Source: an uncultured Acidobacteriota bacterium (GTDB taxonomy: Bacteria > Acidobacteriota > Thermoanaerobaculia > Multivoradales > SZUA-115). Taken from it: DNA of 64,000 bases. The DNA lies in NCBI GenBank assembly GCA_963805975.1, contig CAWDVR010000001.1, forward strand, positions 1,097,577 to 1,161,576, in the 5' to 3' direction. Position 1 is the first letter of the stretch. Each line of letters starts with the position of its first letter. This document shows, in pieces, positions 1-63,132 of this stretch. The notes under the pieces were generated by a model. That model was given only the letters and a program-made list of their open reading frames with translations, had not been told where the DNA came from and did not search any database. Made by a program: the position numbers and the translations under genes.

Positions 1-33401
<33,401 letters not shown>

Positions 33402-33464
33402 CGTTCCATTCCGTGCACCGCGAGCCCCAGGCTTCCCGCGCGCTCCCATCCCCTGGCTTCGAGC

Positions 33465-34529
33465 CTACTTCGAGGCCCTGCGGGCCCGCTTGGGCGGGGC
33501 TTTCACTTCGGGCTCGAACCAGCCCACCGAGTCAAGCCAGGCCAGGGTGCCAGTCAACCAGGGTGGATTACCGGTTCCGCCGCCGGTGGCGATCGTCCGC
33601 AGCCGCTCCTTGATCACCTTGCCTGTGCCTTCCGGCGGCATCGTGCTGTCCTCGAGGTCGAAATCGAGCAACTCGCCGCCAAGCTTCATCGGCGGGTTCA
33701 GCCGCATGAAGTTCTCGCCGAGGATCGACTTGCATTGGAAGTCGACCGCCATCATTCCGGACTCGAAGAAGGCTTCCACCAGGGCGAACGGCCGGCGCAG
33801 ATCGAGCAACCACTGTTTCCATCCCCAGGGTGCGTTCTCCACGTTGAGACCTGAGCCCGTGAGGCCTGTGCCGACGGAGAGCAGCCGGATCTCGGTCGGT
33901 CTCATCGGCTCTCCCTTGCCTCCAAGCGGGGTGCTCAATGCCTGGGCGAGCGCGCACATGCTCGGGTTGTTGGCGTAGAGCCCGCCGTCGACGAAGCCCT
34001 GGTAGATCGGGAAGAAAATCGGTCCGGCGCTCGTCCGCAAGGCGACGTCGAGGGCCGACTGGCCGAGGTCGGGCTCCCCCTTGCCGCCGAAGTTGTTGAA
34101 CACTTTCGGCTTCCAGGTCGGCACGCCACCCTTCGCCTCGCCCATCAGATCGAAGGTCGGGATCACTACGTACTGCCCTTGCGCAGCCAGGCTGCCGAGG
34201 GTGTTCGTGCCCAGCAGGGGAGTGAGGCTGTCCTTCAGGTAAGCATTGCTGCTGATCGAGAACCAGCCGCTGATCGTCGCGAAGAGCGAGCGCAGGGGCC
34301 TTCCGGCGCTCGGGCTCTGCGACCACAACGAGATCGACTGCTGCAGGCCGGACGCCCGGTCGGCTGCCGTCATCATAAGCAACGCGTTGATCCCGCCGGC
34401 GGAGGTGCCGGCAAAGGCGTCCACTTGGGCTAGGAACTCGGGCCTCTTGCGCTGGATCTGCTCGATCGCGTAGAGGGAAAAGAGTGAAAGGATTCCTCCG
34501 CCGTCCATTGCCAGGATGTTGAAGGCCAT
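33465..34529 (-). CDS. Patatin-like phospholipase / lipid acyl hydrolase
   Basis: A 354-aa ORF. It has the oxyanion-hole block MDGGGILS near the N-terminus, the nucleophile elbow GTSAGG (GxSxG), and the catalytic Asp block FVDGGLYANNP. A Shine-Dalgarno-like AAGGGAGAA precedes the ATG. Its stop is 63 nt upstream of the NRPS start. Confidence 0.85.
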   Translation of the reverse strand: MAFNILAMDGGGILSLFSLYAIEQIQRKRPEFLAQVDAFAGTSAGGINALLMMTAADRASGLQQSISLWSQSPSAGRPLRSLFATISGWFSISSNAYLKDSLTPLLGTNTLGSLAAQGQYVVIPTFDLMGEAKGGVPTWKPKVFNNFGGKGEPDLGQSALDVALRTSAGPIFFPIYQGFVDGGLYANNPSMCALAQALSTPLGGKGEPMRPTEIRLLSVGTGLTGSGLNVENAPWGWKQWLLDLRRPFALVEAFFESGMMAVDFQCKSILGENFMRLNPPMKLGGELLDFDLEDSTMPPEGTGKVIKERLRTIATGGGTGNPPWLTGTLAWLDSVGWFEPEVKAPPKRARRASK

Positions 34530-34644: not shown

Positions 34645-34887
34645 CTACTCGACCTTGACCTTCTTTGAAGCCGGCTGCGGCTTCGCCTCCGCCGCCAGGT
34701 TGTCGATCGCGGCCTGGACGACCGAGGTATAGCCCTGGAGGATCGTGAGCCCCGCCTGCAGATAGGCGGCACGCAAGGTCTTGCTGGCGCTCGTTAAATC
34801 CGCGGTCTGCGGGGCGAGCTTGGAGAGCTCGGCGATCTGCTGCATCACGGTGCCAAGAATGTCGCTCGGACCACCCACCTGGCTCAT
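34645..34887 (-). CDS. Hypothetical 80-aa protein, predicted all-helical, Lys-rich C-terminal tail
   Basis: A strong RBS (GAGGAGGAG) lies 5-6 nt upstream of the ATG, which starts 12 nt after the stop of the ArsA-like gene. I see no TM segment, no Cys and no recognisable family motif. Confidence 0.6.
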   Translation of the reverse strand: MSQVGGPSDILGTVMQQIAELSKLAPQTADLTSASKTLRAAYLQAGLTILQGYTSVVQAAIDNLAAEAKPQPASKKVKVE

Positions 34888-34899
34888 GGTGCTCCTCCT

Positions 34900-36075
34900 C
34901 TACTTGAAGTCGATGCTCAGCTCGTTGCCTTCCATCCGGGCCTGCGTCGTCTTGAATTGGGCCAGGGAGCGCGGCAGGGCAACGTGGCGCTTGAAGCTGG
35001 AGATACGGACAATCAGCTCGTGCTCGTTACGCGTTAGGACAATCTCGTCCTTTTCGACGAAAGGCAGGACCATTTTCAGCCGGTAGATGCCATCCGCCTT
35101 TTCGAAACTGAACGGCGGAGCGTCGACCTGCCGTGCCGCCGGATCCTGGTCGCCGAACAGGACTCGTCCGACCTCGGCCAAGCGATCGATGCCCACCACC
35201 TCGTCGCCGAACAGAGGCACCCTGGAGACCGGGATCGGGTCGAAGTACTTCTCGATCTGAGCGGCGTAGTTCGCGTGGGTGCCCACCCAGCCCGCGAGGT
35301 ATCCCTCGGCCGAGCTGATCAAGCGATTGATGATCACGCCGTCCGTATTCATACCGTACATGCAGAAGTACGTGTAGGCTCTCTGTGTCTCACGGACAAC
35401 CATCTTCTCGGCGTTGGTCACCAGGCGCACCGAGGTGACCTCCGGGTCCTTCAGCAGCTCGTCGATCCCTTCGAGCCGCCCGAAGGCGTTCTTCAGCGAG
35501 TCGAAGTAGCTGTCCTGTGGCAAGGGATAGTCGATGAGCTTGCTGGCGATCGGACGCGCCACCTTCAGAATCGCGCGATCCGTCTTGAATCGCTTGCGAA
35601 CATACCAGTCAATCGATGTCATCAGATTGACGAAGCGCAACGATTCGCTAGTCGGTGGACAATCGACGACGATCAAGTCGTAAGTATCTTCGCGGTAATG
35701 CTGATTGATCGCCATCAACGCGATCAGATCCTCCATACCGGGCATGATGGCCACTTCCTCGGCTACGATGCCACTCATCCCCATGGAGGAGAAAAAAGCC
35801 CCGATGTAGTGATAGAGGTCTCCCCATTGCCGCTCGATCTGCTCTTGAACGTCGACCTCCTGAAGGTCGAGGTTTTCCGCCATGCGCAACGGAAGGCCCC
35901 CATGCTGATCGAACAGGCTGCAATCGAGGTTGAAGGAATCCGAGAGACTGTGAGCGAGATCGAAAGAAAGGACGAGGGTTCGATGGCCCCTTCGGGCCGC
36001 AGCAACGGCTGTCGCCGCAGCGATCGTGGTCTTGCCGACACCCCCCTTGCCGGAGACGAGGATCACGCGCTTCAC
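34900..36075 (-). CDS. ArsA/Get3-family P-loop ATPase with C-terminal HSP20/alpha-crystallin-like domain
   Basis: A 391-aa ORF with a GTG start; an in-frame TAA lies 8 codons upstream. It has the deviant Walker A SGKGGVGKTT, DLAHSLSD (ArsA DPAHSL-type block) and VVDCPPTSESLRF (DTAPTGH-type switch region). The last 75 or so residues (YRLKMVLPFVEKDEIVLTRNEHELIVRISSFKRHVALPRSL...MEGNELSIDF) have the beta-sandwich pattern of ArsA-associated HSP20-like domains. Confidence 0.8.
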   Translation of the reverse strand: MKRVILVSGKGGVGKTTIAAATAVAAARRGHRTLVLSFDLAHSLSDSFNLDCSLFDQHGGLPLRMAENLDLQEVDVQEQIERQWGDLYHYIGAFFSSMGMSGIVAEEVAIMPGMEDLIALMAINQHYREDTYDLIVVDCPPTSESLRFVNLMTSIDWYVRKRFKTDRAILKVARPIASKLIDYPLPQDSYFDSLKNAFGRLEGIDELLKDPEVTSVRLVTNAEKMVVRETQRAYTYFCMYGMNTDGVIINRLISSAEGYLAGWVGTHANYAAQIEKYFDPIPVSRVPLFGDEVVGIDRLAEVGRVLFGDQDPAARQVDAPPFSFEKADGIYRLKMVLPFVEKDEIVLTRNEHELIVRISSFKRHVALPRSLAQFKTTQARMEGNELSIDFK

Positions 36076-36160: not shown

Positions 36161-36188
36161 TTGCAACTTGCTCGACTGCGAGTATAGA
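36161..36188 (+). promoter_or_regulatory. Candidate sigma70-type promoter (TTGCAA - 16 nt - TATAGA) for the NTF2-like / radical SAM genes
   Basis: Found by pattern inspection only, in the 396-nt low-GC divergent intergenic region. It would give a leader of about 275 nt. Confidence 0.25.
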
Positions 36189-36471
36189 GGGATGTCGTCA
36201 GCGTGCGCAAGAGTAAATCTACCTCTCAAGCCTTGTGCAGACACTGCTTACGACTTCTGGACATCGCTCTCGGAGACGTGTACAATTCTTGCCTGCGTAT
36301 TTCGGCAAGACGTAGTAATGCACAGAGGCGTCGATGCCATACAACCGTCGGCCCTGACGGCGCTACTCTACGCCGCTCGCATAGCCTTCTCGCGGCATCG
36401 CCAAGTGCGCAGGGATGCATAAGAGGTGGGATCGATCCAATCTGTGCCAAATTAGCAACGGAGGCGAGGCC

Positions 36472-36879
36472 ATGTCGCTGGAAGACCAACTCAAGGCGAA
36501 AGAAGAGGAATACTGGAAGTTGTGGGCGGATCTCGATCAGGCAGCGTTTCTCGACCTCTTCAGTGATCGCGTCCTCGCCTGGCCCAGCGGGTTGCCTTAT
36601 CCGATGGGTAAAGATTGGTTCAAGCTTTGGACCAAGACGACCTTCGAGAACATCGAGCCCGGCACATTCAACTTCAAGCTCGGGCAGATGTACGTGCAGA
36701 TGATCGATGACACGAGCGGGATCATTTACTACGCATGGTCCTATGATGCCACCCTCAAAATGCCACCTGGCCCTCGTCATGCTTCCGGAACGCTCTCTCA
36801 CACCTGGGTTCTGGAAGAAGACTGGGCGATCATTGGCGGGACCAGTCAGGCCAATCCGACTGTAACGAGCGCCCTGTGA
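36472..36879 (+). CDS. NTF2-like (SnoaL/DUF4440-like) small protein
   Basis: 135 aa from the ATG at 36472, preceded by GGAGG 8 nt upstream; the track's longer start is 36415. The N-terminal helix followed by the C-terminal pattern GTLSHTWVLEEDWAIIGG resembles the ...T.V..K..G.WKI... strand pair of DUF4440/SnoaL folds. This is an assignment from memory of the fold pattern, not a search. Confidence 0.45.
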   Translation: MSLEDQLKAKEEEYWKLWADLDQAAFLDLFSDRVLAWPSGLPYPMGKDWFKLWTKTTFENIEPGTFNFKLGQMYVQMIDDTSGIIYYAWSYDATLKMPPGPRHASGTLSHTWVLEEDWAIIGGTSQANPTVTSAL

Positions 36880-36947
36880 GTTTGGAGGCGAAATCTCATC
36901 AGTGCTATTTCTTGCGCTGACCGCCGAATTTGACGGAGGAGATCGAC

Positions 36948-38864
36948 ATGTACAGGATCACTCTGATCAACATGCCCTTCTCGAACCTGAGTCTGCCGAG
37001 CCTGGCTCTGACTCAGCTCAAGGCGGTCTTAGAGCGCGATCTCGATGACCAAATACGGGTGCGTATTCTTTATCTGAATCACGATTTCTCGCACTATCTC
37101 GGGCTCGATCTCTATTTCCGTATCACGCATGCCGTCGAGTCGAACAACTCCGGGCTCGGTGACTGGTTGTTTCGTCAGGTCGCCTTTCCTCTCGCGAGCG
37201 ACAACATCCAGCAATACTTCCAGCGTTACTATCCCCAGCAAGAAGGTGGTCTCGACGTTCTCAAGGGAAAGATCCTAGCCAAGCGGGTGCGTCTCGGACA
37301 GTTTCTCGATCGGCTGATCGGCAACTATCAGCTGGATCAGGAGGATCTAGTCGGTTTTACTTCAATGTTCGCCCAGAACGTCGCAAGCTTGGCTATGGCG
37401 CGGAAGATCAAGGACCGGAATCCACGATGCGTCACCGTTATGGGTGGCGCCAATTGCGAAGCACCGATGGGAGCCGAGCTCGCGGCTCACGTCGAAGCGA
37501 TGGACTTCATCTTCTCCGGACCCGCGCTGGTGAGTTTTCCGCAATTCGTCCGTTATCAGATCCGTGGCGAAGTCGAGGCTTGTCGAACTCTGCAGGGTGT
37601 TTTTTGTGGCGCGAACCTCGGCTCCAAACACCTCGAGGGATCTGGGGCTATCGGGGCCGAGCTGCCGATGAACATCCCGGTGCCGCTCGACTATGACGAG
37701 TTTCTGGCGCTGTTTGAGAAGAACTTTCCTGGTGGCGACCTTCGACCCTGTCTCACCTTCGAGACCTCGCGAGGTTGCTGGTGGGGAGAGCGTTCGCATT
37801 GTACGTTCTGTGGTCTCAACGGTGGCACGATGGCTTTCCGCCGGATGCCCGCCGACGACGCAGTGGAGCTGCTGAATGGGCTCTTCTTACGTTACGGAGA
37901 TCGCTGTCCTCGCTACGAAGCAGTGGACAACATCATGCCGATCGATTACATCAAGGACGTTTTTCCTCGCCTGAAGCCACCCCCGGAAGCCACGATCTTT
38001 TACGAGATCAAAGCCAACATGAAAGAGGAAGAGCTGGAGATCCTGAAGCGGGGTGGAGTCAACGAGGTCCAGCCCGGCATCGAGTCTCTTTCGACTTCCA
38101 CCTTGAAGCTTATGCGGAAGGGCACCACGAGCTTCCAGAACATTCGTTTCCTGAAAGGTTGCCTATCCGCCAACGTACGGCCGATCTGGAATCTTTTGAT
38201 CGGTTTTCCCGGGGAGGAAGCTGGTGTATACGAGAAGTATCTAGCGGACCTTCCGCTACTCTTTCATCTGATGCCGCCGACCGGTGCCTTTCCCGTTCGT
38301 TTCGATCGCTATAGCCCATACTTCACCCACTCGGATAGCTTCCGGCTAAAGCTCTCACCCTATGATTTCTACGAGATGGTTTACCCCTTCGGAACCGACT
38401 CGCTCTACAACCTTGCCTATTACTTCGAAGACCGGAACTACAACGCGAGATATATTGATAACCTGATCCTGTGGAAAGAGAAGCTCAACACGGTTGTCGA
38501 TCAATGGCGTGCGCTGTGGAAGTCCGACAGCGTGCTTCCGAAGCCCGAGCTGTATCTCAAGCTGGCCGCTGACTCGTGCCCTGCCGTGGTCTTCGATTCA
38601 CGAAACGGCCAGAGTGGAACGGAGCACGAGATCAGCGATCTAGGCCTCCGAGTCCTCGATCTGCTTCACGTCCGAGGGATGAGGCTGACGGATCTCGAGA
38701 GGTCCGTCGATGCGACTCCGGATGACCTTGCGGGGGAGATCGACGGACTGCGTCGATCGGGGATCCTTTTCGAGGAGGATGGTCGCTGGATGAGCCTGGT
38801 TATCGACCGTGCGTCGCAGCTCGGACGGATGGAGAGCTATCAGTCGCTGCCGACTCTGGTTTGA
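36948..38864 (+). CDS. B12-binding-domain radical SAM enzyme, RiPP-maturase-like (C-methyltransferase family candidate)
   Basis: 638 aa from the ATG at 36948, with GGAGGA 7 nt upstream; the track's TTG start is 36930. The N-terminal region is B12-binding-like (DLVGFTSMFAQNVASLAMARKIKDRNPRCVTVMGGANCEAPMG). The cluster motif SRGCWWGERSHCTFCGLNG is Cx7Cx2C, at 37776-37811. The C-terminal part looks like a winged helix (LRVLDLLHVRGMRLTDLERSV..LAGEIDGLRRSGILFEEDGRW). GC content is much lower than in the flanks. Confidence 0.8.
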   Translation: MYRITLINMPFSNLSLPSLALTQLKAVLERDLDDQIRVRILYLNHDFSHYLGLDLYFRITHAVESNNSGLGDWLFRQVAFPLASDNIQQYFQRYYPQQEGGLDVLKGKILAKRVRLGQFLDRLIGNYQLDQEDLVGFTSMFAQNVASLAMARKIKDRNPRCVTVMGGANCEAPMGAELAAHVEAMDFIFSGPALVSFPQFVRYQIRGEVEACRTLQGVFCGANLGSKHLEGSGAIGAELPMNIPVPLDYDEFLALFEKNFPGGDLRPCLTFETSRGCWWGERSHCTFCGLNGGTMAFRRMPADDAVELLNGLFLRYGDRCPRYEAVDNIMPIDYIKDVFPRLKPPPEATIFYEIKANMKEEELEILKRGGVNEVQPGIESLSTSTLKLMRKGTTSFQNIRFLKGCLSANVRPIWNLLIGFPGEEAGVYEKYLADLPLLFHLMPPTGAFPVRFDRYSPYFTHSDSFRLKLSPYDFYEMVYPFGTDSLYNLAYYFEDRNYNARYIDNLILWKEKLNTVVDQWRALWKSDSVLPKPELYLKLAADSCPAVVFDSRNGQSGTEHEISDLGLRVLDLLHVRGMRLTDLERSVDATPDDLAGEIDGLRRSGILFEEDGRWMSLVIDRASQLGRMESYQSLPTLV

Positions 38865-38917
38865 GGCTCCGTTCGTCATCGCCGTGCTGCGCTCGGTTCC
38901 CCAGGCCCTCGAACCGC

Positions 38918-39290
38918 TTCACGGCCCAACTCGCAGCACTCGAGCGAAGCAAAGAGCGCTTGATCGAGGTGTACGTCTTCCAGCAGGTCATCGACGAAGG
39001 GACCTTCCGCTCCCACCTCGTAAGCTGAATGAGGACATAGCTTTAGCCAAGGCTCATGCTGCAGAGATCGAGACCGAGCCGACTGATCTCGAATCGCTCT
39101 GGGAGTTTGGTGAGCATGTAGCGACTCACGCCGGCAGCCTCTGGCAGGAGGCTCCGCTCGAACAGAAAACTGAGCCTCCAAAGGTTGATTTCCTGACAGG
39201 ACATTACGTACGGCACGGAGGGATTTCAAACAGCGCCAACCAGCCTAATTTTCAACGACTTACGTGGGCCGAAGGACGTAAAAACGGCGA
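38918..39290 (+). pseudogene. Frameshifted recombinase/integrase-like remnant abutting the tRNA 3' end
   Basis: Frame 1 reads FTAQLAALERSKERLIEVYVFQQVIDEGTFRSHLVS and stops at 39026-39028. The -1 frame continues LNEDIALAKAHAAEIETEPTDLESLWEFGEHVATHAGSLWQEAPLEQK. A further shift gives KLSLQRLIS, resembling the ...LW.EA.L.QKQRLQ.L.FP.G... tails I recall from tRNA-adjacent integrase annotations. There is no start codon and no catalytic domain. Confidence 0.3.
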
Positions 39291-39366
39291 TGGTATCCCC
39301 AACGGGATTCGAACCCGTGTTATCGCCTTGAAAGGGCGGTGTCCTAGGCCTCTAGACGATGGGGAC
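39291..39366 (-). tRNA. tRNA-Glu (anticodon UUC), CCA encoded
   Basis: The reverse complement is GTCCCCATCGTCTAGAGGCCTAGGACACCGCCCTTTCAAGGCGATAACACGGGTTCGAATCCCGTTGGGGATACCA. It folds as a 76-nt cloverleaf with a 7-bp acceptor stem (G1-U72 wobble), a GTCT/GGAC D stem, and anticodon stem CCGCC/GGCGA with one mismatch. The anticodon loop is CTTTCAA, the T arm is ACGGG-TTCGAAT-CCCGT, and the molecule ends ACCA. It closely resembles E. coli tRNA-Glu as I recall it. Confidence 0.9.
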
Positions 39367-39449: not shown

Positions 39450-40841
39450 ATGGAGGAGAGGGTCAGCGCGGCGGTCGCACCATCCGCGGAGCGTGCGGGC
39501 TTGGCGCGCCGGCTGGGCCTGTTCGACGCCACCATGATCGTCATGGGCGGCATCGTCGGTTCCGGCATCTTCATGAACCCCTACGTGGTGGCGCGCCAGG
39601 TGGGCACGCCGTTCCTGATCCTCTCCGCGTGGGCCCTCGGCGGGCTGATCGCGCTCACCGGCGCCTTCATCTACGCCGAGCTCGCGGCCCGGCGGCCCAG
39701 CGTCGGCGGCCAGTACGCCTACATCCGCGAAGCGTTCCACCCGCTGCCGGCGTTCATCTACGCCTGGAGCCTGCTTTTAGTGATCCAGACCGGCGGCATG
39801 GCTGCCGTGGCGCTCACTTTCGCGCGCTATTTTCTCGAGCTGGTGCCGCTGTCGCTCTCCGACTGGGCCGTGGCGGCGCTGGCGCTCGGCGCCTTGACGC
39901 TGGTCAACTGCCTCGGGGTCAAGGCGGGAAGCGCGGCGCAGAACGTGCTCATGGTGGCGAAGATCGTTGCCATCCTGGTGCTGATCGGCGCCGGCCTCTT
40001 CGCGGCTCCGGCGAGCCCGGTCGGCCGCGGAACCGCGAGCCCGCTCCTCGACCGGCCGCTCTCCTTCGACCTCCTGACGGCGATGGGTGCGGCCATGGTG
40101 CCGGTGCTCTTTGCCTACGGAGGCTGGCAGACCTCCTGCTTCGTTGCCGGTGAGATCCGCGAGCCGCGAAAGAACCTGCCTCGCGGCCTGCTCCTGGGCG
40201 TCACCGGCGTGGTGGTGCTCTATCTCCTGGTCAATTTCGTCTGCCTTCGGGTGCTGGGCACGGCCGGCCTGGCGGCGACCACGACCCCGGCCTCGGACGT
40301 GATGCACGTGGCCCTGGGTGCAACCGGCGGCCGGCTCATCGCCGCCGGCATCGCGATCTCGACGCTCGGGTTCCTGAGCCAGAGCATGCTCACCGGGCCG
40401 CGTGTCTACTACGCCATGGCGGCCGACGGCCTGTTCTTCGAGCAGGTGGCCTGGCTCCACCCGCGCACCCAGGTGCCGGTGGTGGCGATCCTGCTGCAGG
40501 GCACGCTGGCACTCCTGATCGCGCTCTCCGGCCAGTACGAGAGGATCCTCAACTACGTGGTATCGGTGGACTGGATCTTTTTCGGCCTGACCGCGCTCTG
40601 TGTCTTCCGGCTGCGCCGACAGGACAGGGAGAGCGGCACGCCGCGGGAAGTCCTGCAACGTATTCCCGGCCACCCGCTGACCACCGGGCTCTTCGTGCTG
40701 GCGAGCGTGCTGGTGGTGGCCAACACGCTCTATCAGTACCCGGTCGACAGCGCCGTCGGCTTGGCCATCCTCGCCGCGGGAGTGCCGGTCTATGGCTTCT
40801 GGCGGTGGAAAGGAGCGAGATGGGCTCGTCGGACTCTTTGA
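39450..40841 (+). CDS. APC-superfamily amino acid permease
   Basis: A 463-aa ORF with about 12 hydrophobic segments. The N-terminal signature is LGLFDATMIVMGGIVGSGIFMNPYVVA. Confidence 0.85.
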   Translation: MEERVSAAVAPSAERAGLARRLGLFDATMIVMGGIVGSGIFMNPYVVARQVGTPFLILSAWALGGLIALTGAFIYAELAARRPSVGGQYAYIREAFHPLPAFIYAWSLLLVIQTGGMAAVALTFARYFLELVPLSLSDWAVAALALGALTLVNCLGVKAGSAAQNVLMVAKIVAILVLIGAGLFAAPASPVGRGTASPLLDRPLSFDLLTAMGAAMVPVLFAYGGWQTSCFVAGEIREPRKNLPRGLLLGVTGVVVLYLLVNFVCLRVLGTAGLAATTTPASDVMHVALGATGGRLIAAGIAISTLGFLSQSMLTGPRVYYAMAADGLFFEQVAWLHPRTQVPVVAILLQGTLALLIALSGQYERILNYVVSVDWIFFGLTALCVFRLRRQDRESGTPREVLQRIPGHPLTTGLFVLASVLVVANTLYQYPVDSAVGLAILAAGVPVYGFWRWKGARWARRTL

Positions 40842-41956
40842 AGGGGGATCTCCTGAGGGGGGAGCCCCCCTTCCGCTCGCAGTACATGGCGTGGGCCAAG
40901 ACCCAGTCGCAGGCGCGCTTCGGCCTGGCGGCCAGCAACATGGCCCCGTTCCCGCTCGCCGAGCTGGACGCGACGATCGACAACCTCGAGATCAACGGCC
41001 CCACCACCTACGGCTACCCGCCCCTGCAGGCCGCGCTGGCCGCCAAGTGCGAGGTGGCCGAGGACTCCGTGCTCACCGCCATCGGCACTACCCAGGCCAA
41101 TCACTTGGTGATGGCGGCGCTGCTCTCGCCCGGCGACCATCTGCTGATCGAGCACCCGGTCTACGAGCCGATGGTGGCCCTCGCCCGGCAGGTGGGGGCC
41201 GAGGTCGACTTCTTCACCCGGCGCGCCGAGACAGGCTTCGGCGTCGACCCGGAGGAGGTGGAGAGGAAGGTCACACCGAGGACGCGCCTGATCGCGATCA
41301 CCGACCTCCACAACCCGAGCAGCGCGCGGCTGGACGAGCCCACGCTGGCGGCTCTCGCGGGCGTCGCGCGCCGGGCCGGTGCGCGCCTGCTGGTGGACGA
41401 GGTCTATCTCGAGATGGCATGGGTGGAGGGCGATCGCTCGCGCCCCGGCGTGGCCTCGGCCTTCCACCTCGGCCCCGAGGTCGTGGCCACCAGCAGCTTG
41501 ACCAAGGCCTATGGGCTGTCGGGGCTGCGCTGCGGCTGGGTGTTGGCCGAACCTTCCCTGGTCTGCCGGATGTGGGAGCTCGCCGACCTCTTCGTGGGCA
41601 CCCCGGCCCACCCCGCCGAGCTGTTGAGCGTCCTCGCCCTCGCAAGGCTGGGGAAGATCGCGGACCGGGCACAGGAGATCCTCGTTGCCAACCGCGCGCT
41701 GGTAGGGACTTTTCTCGACGGTCGCGACGACCTCGAGATCGCCCGGCCGCGCTTCGGCAGCGTGCTCTTCCCGCGCTGGGCGGGCGGCGATGTCGAGCCG
41801 CTCTGCCGCCTGCTGCGCGAGAAGCACGAGACCGCGGTCGTGCCCGGCCGCTTCTTCGGCGCACCGGAGCACTTCCGCTTCGGCATCGGCGGCTCGACCG
41901 AGGTTCTGCGAGCCGGGCTCGAGAGGCTGGGAGCGGCGCTCGACGAATTGAGGTGA
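40820..41956 (+). CDS. PLP-dependent aminotransferase, class I/II
   Basis: The block SSLTKAYGLSGLRCGW carries the PLP-lysine. The NPSSARL and YLEMAW blocks are also present. The ATG at 40820 is preceded by AAGGAG; the track's GTG start is 40805. It overlaps the permease stop, which suggests an operon. Confidence 0.8.
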   Translation: MGSSDSLKGDLLRGEPPFRSQYMAWAKTQSQARFGLAASNMAPFPLAELDATIDNLEINGPTTYGYPPLQAALAAKCEVAEDSVLTAIGTTQANHLVMAALLSPGDHLLIEHPVYEPMVALARQVGAEVDFFTRRAETGFGVDPEEVERKVTPRTRLIAITDLHNPSSARLDEPTLAALAGVARRAGARLLVDEVYLEMAWVEGDRSRPGVASAFHLGPEVVATSSLTKAYGLSGLRCGWVLAEPSLVCRMWELADLFVGTPAHPAELLSVLALARLGKIADRAQEILVANRALVGTFLDGRDDLEIARPRFGSVLFPRWAGGDVEPLCRLLREKHETAVVPGRFFGAPEHFRFGIGGSTEVLRAGLERLGAALDELR

Positions 41957-62320: not shown

Positions 62321-63016
62321 CTACTCCGGCCGGCGGAAAGCCGCGATGGCCCATGCCCCCTTGCGGCCGGTGACCCGCACCCGGTCCACCAGCTCCAGAT
62401 CCCCTTCGAGCGCACGCAGGATGGCGGCGGTGCGCGCCGAGTGGAACATCGACACCAGCAGCAGGCCACCGGGCCGCACGAAGCCCAGGTAGCGCCGGGC
62501 CTGGCCACGCGGGTCGTCGAGGTAGTAGAGGCTCTCGTTCAGGACCACGGCGTCGAAGGTACCGGCTGGCACGAAGGTCGCGGCGTCGGCTACCTCGAAC
62601 CGGTCCGCCGCGGAGGCGCGCCGGCGCGCCGTCTCGACGGCCACGGTCGAGAGGTCGATGCCCTCGTAGGCAGAGTAGCGTCCGGGACCGAGGAGGTCGC
62701 GCAGGATGCCCTCGCCGCAACCCACGTCGAGGATCGAGCGCGCCGCTGCCAGATGCTCGAGGAAACCGATGATCACGCTGTAGCGCGCGATCTCGTCCGC
62801 GCTGCGGAGCGTGGCCCACCGGCCCTCACGGTACTGCTCGTCCCAGGCCTCGCGGGCGACCGGCACGTCGCCGCGCGTGCCCACGTCTTCGAGCGTTCGC
62901 ACCCAGCGCTCGAGGCCCGGCGTGCGGGGGAGGCGTCGGCCATAGAGCGCCGAGTAGTAGGCCCACACCACGGGCCGTGAGACTTTCCTGAGCACCTTGC
63001 GCAGCAGGCCGGGCAT
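62321..63016 (-). CDS. Class I SAM-dependent methyltransferase
   Basis: Motif I is ILDVGCGEGIL and post-I is YEGIDLS. I chose the start at MPGLLRK (complement 63014..63016); the track's longer start is 63121. Confidence 0.7.
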   Translation of the reverse strand: MPGLLRKVLRKVSRPVVWAYYSALYGRRLPRTPGLERWVRTLEDVGTRGDVPVAREAWDEQYREGRWATLRSADEIARYSVIIGFLEHLAAARSILDVGCGEGILRDLLGPGRYSAYEGIDLSTVAVETARRRASAADRFEVADAATFVPAGTFDAVVLNESLYYLDDPRGQARRYLGFVRPGGLLLVSMFHSARTAAILRALEGDLELVDRVRVTGRKGAWAIAAFRRPE

Positions 63017-63132
63017 GGGAGATTTCCGCGGAGCGGAGAGTTGCGGCAGGTTAGCACAGGGCACCGGCACGGGCCGGGCTTGGTAAGCTCCCGCGCACCG
63101 TCTCGACCGGCCGGCTGCCACCCTTCTCCAGC

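Follow-up and report, generated by a model that had tools for sequence, protein, structure and literature searches.

In a 64,000-nucleotide stretch from an uncultured Acidobacteriota bacterium (assembly GCA_963805975.1, contig CAWDVR010000001.1), a 638-aa cobalamin-type radical S-adenosylmethionine (rSAM) enzyme is encoded downstream of a small NTF2-like gene and close to a giant nonribosomal peptide synthetase (NRPS) gene. We call this stretch, which is 64 kb long and belongs to a contig of about 1.5 Mb, the window. We propose, with a probability of about 0.65, that the enzyme is a class B C-methyltransferase of the PoyC/DscE type that methylates the peptide product of the adjacent NRPS at unactivated carbons. 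Its family is named for the maturation of peptides that ribosomes synthesize and that are then modified post-translationally (RiPPs). The window enzyme falls in the branch of this family that accompanies NRPS genes and not in the branch that accompanies precursor peptides, and therefore it most likely methylates the lipopeptide of the adjacent synthetase.

Family, motif and fold of the enzyme

The open reading frame (ORF) of the enzyme begins with an ATG preceded by GGAGGAG (Table 1). The protein matched the NCBIfam profile TIGR03975 with 516.5 bits (cutoff 281.85), over positions 1–606 of the 606 in the hidden Markov model (HMM), which bears out the family that the first-pass annotation had named. 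The Pfam Radical_SAM match covered residues 278–430. NCBIfam also gave weak matches to HpnJ and HpnR, starting at residues 137–142, and no assignment to another class B family emerged.

The [4Fe-4S] cluster motif has the spacing Cx7Cx2C. This block was unchanged across 40 homologues and 77 related loci; its invariance in the 77-locus set is partly by construction, because CWWGERSH was among the six search patterns. The same spacing is the distinctive motif of PoyC (review PMC11285071) and is also distinctive in MpcB, the clavusporin methyltransferase (bioRxiv 10.1101/2024.01.23.576971). The motif was thus present as first described, but its apparent peculiarity did not hold: Cx7Cx2C is a family trait and no oddity of the window protein.

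An AlphaFold2 model of the protein, built from an alignment of 40 homologues, had a mean predicted local distance difference test (pLDDT) score of 87.1 and a predicted template modeling (pTM) score of 0.88. By sequence, no relative with a solved structure was detectable, and none has been solved for the TIGR03975 family. When the model was compared with the Protein Data Bank (PDB) using Foldseek, the top matches were all cobalamin-dependent rSAM enzymes (OxsB, TsrM, TokK, MgmA, and CysS), in alignments of 515–676 columns with 11%–15% identity and template modeling (TM) scores of about 0.4–0.5. At the level of the fold, the model has the class B layout, in which a Rossmann-type cobalamin domain is followed by a radical SAM barrel. 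CysS, TokK/ThnK, TsrM, and OxsB, the best structural matches, share this order of domains; they differ in sequence (11%–15% identity), in belonging to other families, and in their small or pantetheinylated substrates, and we take them to carry the canonical CX3CX2C motif. The N-terminal domain lies inside the alignments to OxsB, TsrM, TokK, and CysS. These fold matches support a B12-type domain at the N-terminus, for which cobalamin binding is predicted at the level of the modeled fold.

The C-terminal domain, modeled alone, had a pLDDT of 84.5. Foldseek returned weak matches only (E 0.1–0.5), nearly all of them winged helix-turn-helix (wHTH) proteins, namely regulators of the ArsR, MarR, and IclR types and the N-terminal domains of O-methyltransferases. 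The order of its elements, three strands and three helices, resembles that of a RiPP recognition element (RRE), and the matches at these E values were to generic wHTH folds; a PqqD-like match was absent from the top 50. The label of a winged-helix-like domain therefore holds and an RRE is unproven, because the matches were weak, were of the wHTH type only, and included none of the PqqD type. The model and the Foldseek matches together agree with the three-part architecture described at first, with a B12-type N-terminus, an rSAM core, and a winged-helix-like C-terminus.

Two clades and their gene neighborhoods

Relatives of the enzyme number in the thousands, the family having at least 7,900 members, and the exact protein was not itself on record. 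The closest are 57%–60% identical and come mostly from Acidobacteriota or Thermoanaerobaculia metagenomes; the closest one on a long contig (59% identity) is encoded between NRPS genes, with stop and start codons overlapping on both sides. We took 80 loci from contigs representing one genome per species, searched them with an NRPS module of the window, called their genes heuristically, and clustered the neighbors, with flanks of up to 10 kb. A neighbor-joining tree of 77 relatives and the window protein, rooted at the midpoint and without support values, showed two deep clades, and the window protein was nested among acidobacterial sequences in the NRPS-linked one.

The 63 loci of clade 1 encode proteins 41%–59% identical to the window enzyme. 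NRPS ORFs occurred within 10 kb in 57 of them; the distance was below 1 kb in 31, and in 20 the NRPS was on the same strand and directly adjacent. The six clade 1 loci in which no NRPS was found all have short flanks. Clade 2, in contrast, comprised 17 loci with 33%–39% identity to the window enzyme, and only two of the 17 had an NRPS, located 5–7 kb away (57/63 vs. 2/17, Fisher p = 9e-10). Nif11 precursors and a PoyD-like epimerase, which is a second radical SAM gene, were found in 8/17 clade 2 loci and in 0/63 clade 1 loci. An annotated Sinorhizobium plasmid, used as a control, carried a methyltransferase, a gene annotated as a "RiPP maturation amino acid epimerase," and four Nif11-like precursors whose cores are rich in Val/Thr. 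The C-terminal domain was found in both clades in diverged form, with a consensus identity of 25% as compared with 51% in the catalytic core.

The first-pass annotation had called the enzyme an orphan and had stated that such enzymes are normally encoded beside a leader-containing precursor. The former cannot be maintained, as an NRPS gene, which the annotation had mentioned as a neighbor without giving its distance, starts 3.5 kb away and 57/63 clade relatives are linked to NRPS genes. The latter is correct for one branch of the family and fails for the branch of the window protein, with 57/63 loci linked to NRPS and 0/63 to Nif11. Its observation that there is no precursor nearby proved right. 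Ten small ORFs in and around 34.4–39.5 kb gave no NCBIfam match at E ≤ 1, with a library that includes NHLP and Nif11. A six-frame translation of the whole window contained no homologues of precursor-like ORFs from RiPP-type relatives, and neither the Nif11 precursors of the sister clade and of Sinorhizobium nor the PoyD-like epimerase had a homologue anywhere in the window. An 84-aa ORF (36168–36422) was considered as a precursor and rejected: it had no family match, single-base indels break its frame in the related contig described below (L082), and it overlaps a conserved promoter-like site. The 80-aa ORF at 34645–34887, with no homologues and no family, is an unlikely precursor.

Clade 1 extends over Acidobacteriota, several actinomycete genera, Polyangium (a myxobacterium), Proteobacteria, and one planctomycete. 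By reading of the sequences rather than by HMM, its recurrent neighbors were a cyclic-peptide exporter of the ATP-binding cassette (ABC) type, FtsX-type permeases, TauD/SyrP-like proteins, cytochrome P450 (P450), and major facilitator superfamily (MFS) transporters, which look like usual NRPS accessories.

Several loci had arrangements of their own. In seven loci from Nonomuraea and Acrocarpospora (L033, L035, L039, L041, L042, L046, and L057), a tryptophan halogenase-like and flavin reductase-like pair, annotated by sequence reading, stands immediately before the rSAM gene, and a 2,593-aa NRPS is encoded upstream of the pair, suggesting a tryptophan-containing peptide as the substrate in this subclade, comparable to the role of Arg1 in argyrin biosynthesis. 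In two loci the rSAM gene has a class I/II aminotransferase gene at its side, overlapping it in L004 (6643–7839) and lying 26 nt after it in L026 (11974–13140). The encoded protein is 32% identical to an aminotransferase encoded in the window just beyond a tRNA gene (40805–41956). Since only two of the 63 loci have such a gene, the link is probably coincidental, although it would fit a building-block route. Relatives of a flanking aminotransferase of the window (Eisenbacteria, Acidobacteriota) are only 53%–60% identical to it, so that the host has no close representative. Polyangium jinanense (L038) and a Lamprocystis metagenome-assembled genome (L050) share one gene order, in which an NRPS gene (~1,950 aa) is followed by the rSAM gene and then by two more NRPS genes (~1,170 aa and ~2,130 aa). 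Their rSAM proteins are sisters, and horizontal transfer of the whole cluster is therefore suggested. Two paralogous TIGR03975-type genes were adjacent or close to each other in L013, L022, L073, and L075, comparable to the PoyB/PoyC pair; L013 and L022 fall in the NRPS-linked clade.

The NTF2-like partner and the surroundings of the pair

The NTF2-like gene, with GGAGG 7 nt before its ATG, ends 68 nt before the start codon of the rSAM gene, and the coordinates and the DUF4440 similarity agree with the 135-aa NTF2-like partner reported at first. The match to Pfam DUF4440 (PF14534; E = 5.6e-4, HMM positions 1–103 of 107) scored 20.8 bits, under the gathering score of 25.2. DUF4440 was carried by all four remote relatives that were looked up (P0122 and P0124–P0126; 28%–38% identity).

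A word-based search of 5.8 billion proteins gave a single close homologue, 93% identical at the amino acid level. It is encoded on the 903-bp metagenomic contig L082, which is syntenic with positions 36251–37194 of the window (81% nucleotide identity) and keeps the NTF2–rSAM gene order. Against the L082 copies, the NTF2-like gene had a dN/dS of 0.056, and the rSAM gene, compared over its first 82 codons, one of 0.11. Both genes are under purifying selection and are therefore functional. When 1.84 billion representatives were scanned exhaustively with HMMER, no more than 39 NTF2-like relatives reached E ≤ 1e-3; the next nearest one (38% identity) is located between polyketide synthase (PKS) and NRPS genes, and three further relatives had uninformative gene contexts. 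With tblastn, no NTF2-like neighbor was detectable at about 80 related rSAM loci, and co-occurrence of NTF2-like genes with the enzyme clade was not borne out. The pairing is real but limited to one lineage, and it is not a trait of the enzyme clade; what had been suspected to be an undescribed pairing thus stands for this NTF2-like gene and lapses as a feature of the clade. The NTF2-like protein could be an accessory or substrate-handling protein for the rSAM enzyme.

The hexamers of the promoter-like site upstream of the pair and the length of their spacer are the same in L082, and the adjacent DNA has substitutions and frame-breaking indels. A 25-nt block, ATCGCCAAGTGCGCAGGGATGCATA (36398–36422, + strand), about 50 nt before the NTF2 start, is identical in L082 between diverged flanks; it had no Rfam match and may be an operator or regulatory site. 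A riboswitch in the leader of ~180 nt was considered and rejected, as no Rfam match was obtained at E ≤ 10 and the stability of the leader was no greater than that of shuffled sequence.

The GC content at third codon positions (GC3) of the pair is below that of the NRPS gene (Table 1), and separate acquisition is therefore suggested. Together with the tRNA gene beside it, this composition suggests that the pair may be a later arrival. Searches around it turned up neither an integrase nor a transposase, nor any attachment-site repeat, and the window contains no second copy of the 3′ end of tRNA-Glu and no notable repeats. The region 38865–39290 gave the impression of a decayed recombinase on reading; its read-through translation had no match in Pfam, NCBIfam, or plasmid records, and this candidate was dropped. 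Because neither repeats nor a recombinase support it, the idea of an island is drawn solely from the composition and the tRNA gene.

The NRPS gene lies on the opposite strand, separated from the pair by three genes and a divergent intergenic region of 396 bp. By pattern, its frame contains 11 condensation-family His motifs (10 HHxxxDG and a degenerate starter-C motif), nine A3 motifs of adenylation (A) domains, and nine thiolation (T) motifs; the His motif is missing from at least one additional domain of the condensation family (about residues 4944–5384). Pfam Condensation, AMP-binding, and PP-binding were matched on all four pieces that were sampled. The protein opens with a condensation (C) domain, of the lipopeptide type, and includes an extra C-T unit and a domain resembling an epimerization (E) domain. 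At about residues 3186–3860 (window about 21900–24000, − strand), the third A domain is followed by T, a condensation-family domain, T, and C; this is either a C-T unit that lacks its own A domain or an E domain with a second carrier, and it may be a trans-loaded or skipped position. We take the A-domain codes to specify Thr, Thr, Val, Leu, Val, Leu-like, Thr, Val, and one unknown residue, using GrsA numbering and published code tables; on this basis three of the nine A domains are of the Val type and two of the Leu type. The GrsA fragment used for this reproduced the known Phe code, and the residue assignments are approximate. In the same region, 14 long plus-strand ORFs (129–32603) were considered as genes and rejected. 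They have no Pfam match because the coding frame, according to the frame and GC3 analysis, is the single minus-strand frame of the NRPS.

Of the genes between the NRPS and the pair, the patatin-like one shares the codon composition of the NRPS, and its stop codon is 15–63 nt upstream of the NRPS start. The patatin-like enzyme might supply or process lipid for the starter C domain. It also resembles phospholipase effectors of cyclic-oligonucleotide-based antiphage signaling systems (CBASS), with 103 bits in NCBIfam (below cutoff) and 116 bits in PADLOC; no cyclase or other defense gene was found near it. A defense island was rejected, as the rSAM and NTF2-like proteins had no PADLOC match and only the patatin gene resembles an effector. 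The ArsA-like protein matched Pfam ArsA_ATPase (1.7e-82), ArsA_HSP20 (1.7e-18), and TIGR00345 (211.9 bits). The word search of 5.8 billion sequences found no homologue of the 80-aa ORF other than itself. None of the ArsA-like, patatin-like, and 80-aa proteins had a counterpart at any of about 80 related loci. A 266-aa ORF (62321–63121, − strand), 23 kb to the right of the tRNA, resembles NRPS proteins of related loci in their C-terminal part and is probably a thioesterase-like domain; there may be a second biosynthetic locus at the right-hand end of the window.

Table 1. Features of the window, with positions counted from its first nucleotide and GC3 where calculated
Feature	Position	Strand	GC3	Basis or remark
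NRPS gene, >11,154 codons, at least 10 modules	3..33449	−	0.87–0.90	Stop-free frame 3–33464; start about 33449 or 33401; runs off the window
Patatin-like phospholipase gene	33465..34529	−	0.86	Pfam Patatin 3.8e-19; context gene
Orphan 80-aa ORF, 12 nt downstream of ArsA-like gene	34645..34887	−	0.86	No family match
ArsA/Get3-type ATPase gene with C-terminal HSP20-like domain, divergent from the NTF2–rSAM pair	34900..36075	−	0.79	Pfam, NCBIfam
Promoter-like site TGGACA-17 nt-TACAAT, upstream of the pair	36258..36286	+		Consensus scan, 10/12 matches; pattern match only
NTF2-like (DUF4440-type) gene, 135 aa, upstream in rSAM operon	36472..36879	+	0.70	ORF, ribosome-binding site (RBS)
rSAM gene, PoyC-type (TIGR03975) cobalamin-type C-methyltransferase, 638 aa	36948..38864	+	0.68	ORF, RBS, profile match, fold
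N-terminal Rossmann-type (B12-binding-like) domain, about residues 1–250	36948..37697	+		Alternating strand/helix in model
Cx7Cx2C [4Fe-4S] motif block SRGCWWGERSHCTFCGLNG, residues 274–292	37767..37823	+		C277, C285, C288; read directly
C-terminal winged-helix-like domain, about residues 535–620	38550..38807	+		Three strands, three helices, and a hairpin in model
tRNA-Glu (UUC), 426 nt downstream of rSAM stop	39291..39366	−		ARAGORN; right edge of low-GC stretch
Permease gene beyond the tRNA			0.90	

Proposed function and its alternatives

The nearest functional precedent is DscE, a cobalamin-type rSAM methyltransferase of 693 aa that is encoded with the discodermin NRPS in "Candidatus Entotheonella monilis" (PMC12858407, Nat Chem Biol 2025). 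In vitro, DscE methylated Val5 of free discodermin D to tert-Leu, which gives discodermin B, and conversion of B to A was weak; the name of its best BLAST hit derived from TIGR03975, and the authors called the combination of an NRPS with an rSAM methyltransferase "unusual" (PMC12858407). Like DscE, the window enzyme is a stand-alone protein of about 640–690 aa in an NRPS cluster that has no precursor peptide, and Val, the residue that DscE modifies in its nonribosomal peptide, is also predicted for the window NRPS. Unlike DscE, it is encoded divergently from the NRPS, is compositionally distinct, and has an NTF2-like partner, none being reported for DscE. This likeness is drawn from length, the name of the best hit, and gene context. 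The argyrin cluster of Cystobacter sp. SBCb004 offers a second case, in which the rSAM methyltransferase Arg1 converts the finished argyrins A/B to C/D, with vitamin B12 supplemented as its presumed cofactor to improve conversion (PMC8719831). Arg1, likened here by description, is also encoded with NRPS genes and has about 680 aa; it differs in methylating a tryptophan ring carbon and in sharing an operon with its NRPS.

Among ribosomal systems, the proteusin-type branch with PoyC/PoyB (polytheonamide) has the NCBIfam family, the Cx7Cx2C motif, and the three-domain layout in common with the window enzyme, and the same chemistry is expected of both, at unactivated side-chain carbons such as Val C-beta. 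That branch is encoded with Nif11/NHLP precursors and a PoyD-like epimerase, neither of which is in the window, and it is the other deep clade, to which the window protein is only 33%–39% identical. MpcB (clavusporins, Streptomyces clavuligerus) is a B12-rSAM enzyme with Cx7Cx2C that places multiple methyls onto unactivated carbons of a hydrophobic peptide; it was compared by description only, and differs in that its substrate, MpcA, is ribosomal.

Following the established chemistry of class B enzymes, the Cx7Cx2C cluster would reductively cleave one SAM to a 5′-deoxyadenosyl radical, which would take a hydrogen off an unactivated sp3 side-chain carbon. The substrate radical would then receive a methyl from methylcobalamin held in the N-terminal domain, and a second SAM would remethylate cob(I)alamin. 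As with DscE, a released or late-stage lipopeptide would most likely be the substrate, and methylation could precede or follow release. Val and Leu, which several modules are predicted to incorporate, would be the obvious and plausible targets (e.g., Val to tert-Leu). The NTF2-like gene, kept together with the rSAM gene in one related genome, is presumably co-transcribed with it.

Several points weigh against this proposal. The pair differs in GC3 from the NRPS (0.70/0.68 vs. 0.87) and stands at a tRNA gene, so that it may have come separately and need not serve the NRPS. It is divergent in orientation and not contiguous with the NRPS, as 20 clade members are, and the three genes between them have no counterpart in related loci. 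The link to DscE, Arg1, PoyC, and MpcB was made via family names, length, motif, and literature, and the tree, a midpoint-rooted distance tree without support values, does not contain them. The A-domain codes in related loci are diverse, with about 20% Val/Ile-like, and for this reason no shared target residue can be read for the clade; the code positions and residue assignments are themselves approximate.

Of the readings that the first-pass annotation had left side by side, tailoring of the neighboring NRPS product is favored by clade linkage and adjacency. It is very improbable that the enzyme is a true RiPP maturase with a precursor elsewhere in the genome or in an unrecognized small ORF such as the 80-aa one. 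A full-length match to a family named for RiPP maturation is in keeping with that role, the retained winged-helix-like domain could bind a leader, the window is a small part of its contig, and the nearby 80-aa ORF has no assigned function. The protein is, however, nested in a clade in which NRPS genes are nearly always present and Nif11 and the PoyD-like epimerase never are, the tested small ORFs had no NHLP/Nif11 match, and the window holds no homologue of the sister-clade precursors or epimerase. As to individual candidates, the frame of the 84-aa ORF is broken in L082 and overlaps the promoter-like site, and the 80-aa ORF belongs to the other strand and another operon, has a host-like composition, and lacks counterparts at related loci. 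Action before assembly, on a free amino acid, a carrier-bound monomer, or SAM, with A domains loading the premethylated unit, is unlikely. The characterized family members PoyC, MpcB, and DscE all act on peptides, and the winged-helix-like domain, common to the RiPP clade, suggests a peptide-sized ligand; the Val-type codes of the window look ordinary and not adapted to tert-Leu, a weak point that depends on approximate code assignments. Precedents for such a route are CysS, which also serves an NRPS pathway and acts on pantetheinylated aminobenzoate, and BnvC, which methylates SAM at C4′′ ahead of azetidine formation, although CysS and TokK are only 11%–13% identical to the window enzyme. The aminotransferase genes of L004 and L026 would suit this route, and the clade-wide NRPS linkage fits it equally well.

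The position of the pair raises two further readings. It could have landed beside the NRPS by chance, as a remnant of another cluster with an unrelated substrate or with no current role. Its GC3 of 0.68–0.70, set between genes at 0.86–0.90 (the NRPS, the patatin gene, the 80-aa ORF, and the downstream permease), its place directly beside tRNA-Glu, the divergent orientation and the unrelated genes in between, and the absence of the NTF2-like partner from all 80 related loci are what this account explains. We consider it distinctly improbable, as neither gene of the pair is disrupted, both show strong purifying selection in two genomes, the promoter-like site is conserved, searches turned up no integrase, transposase, or repeat of an attachment site, and a chance landing 3.5 kb from an NRPS start is not to be expected of a protein with 57/63 NRPS-linked relatives. 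Large high-GC genomes carry many NRPS genes, which tempers the last argument. A more elaborate and doubtful possibility is that the NTF2–rSAM pair is a portable, horizontally acquired two-gene cassette beside a resident lipopeptide NRPS, with the NTF2-like protein as its obligate partner, and that the whole clade is devoted to cryptic radical C-methylation of nonribosomal peptides although its members are annotated throughout as RiPP enzymes; the NTF2-like protein might then, for example, present or shield a leaderless, hydrophobic peptide and so stand in for the leader and its recognition in RiPPs.

Returning to methylation of the lipopeptide, the window enzyme is a further member of the recently recognized NRPS-tailoring PoyC-like methyltransferases, with a lineage-specific NTF2-like partner, and the database name "RiPP maturation" is misleading for it. 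Among the "RiPP maturation radical SAM C-methyltransferases," a broad clade that crosses phyla sits in NRPS clusters, and the NCBI family name and, by one report, the antiSMASH "TIGR03975" rule label the whole branch as RiPP machinery. In a study of sponge microbiomes, the RiPP calls made by this rule were excluded as probable false positives (PMC9426513). The gene contexts analyzed here account for that exclusion, as a coherent, multi-phylum clade of these enzymes is embedded in NRPS clusters. For this bacterium, the product predicted from the locus is a radically C-methylated lipopeptide that is long (at least 10 residues) and contains much Thr, Val, and Leu, and to it comes an uncharacterized NTF2-like partner of the enzyme. 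If the clade is DscE-like, many nonribosomal peptides would be methylated in ways that A-domain specificities do not reveal, as in tert-Leu and similar residues, which would be relevant to the peptides of uncultivated Acidobacteriota, actinomycetes, and myxobacteria.

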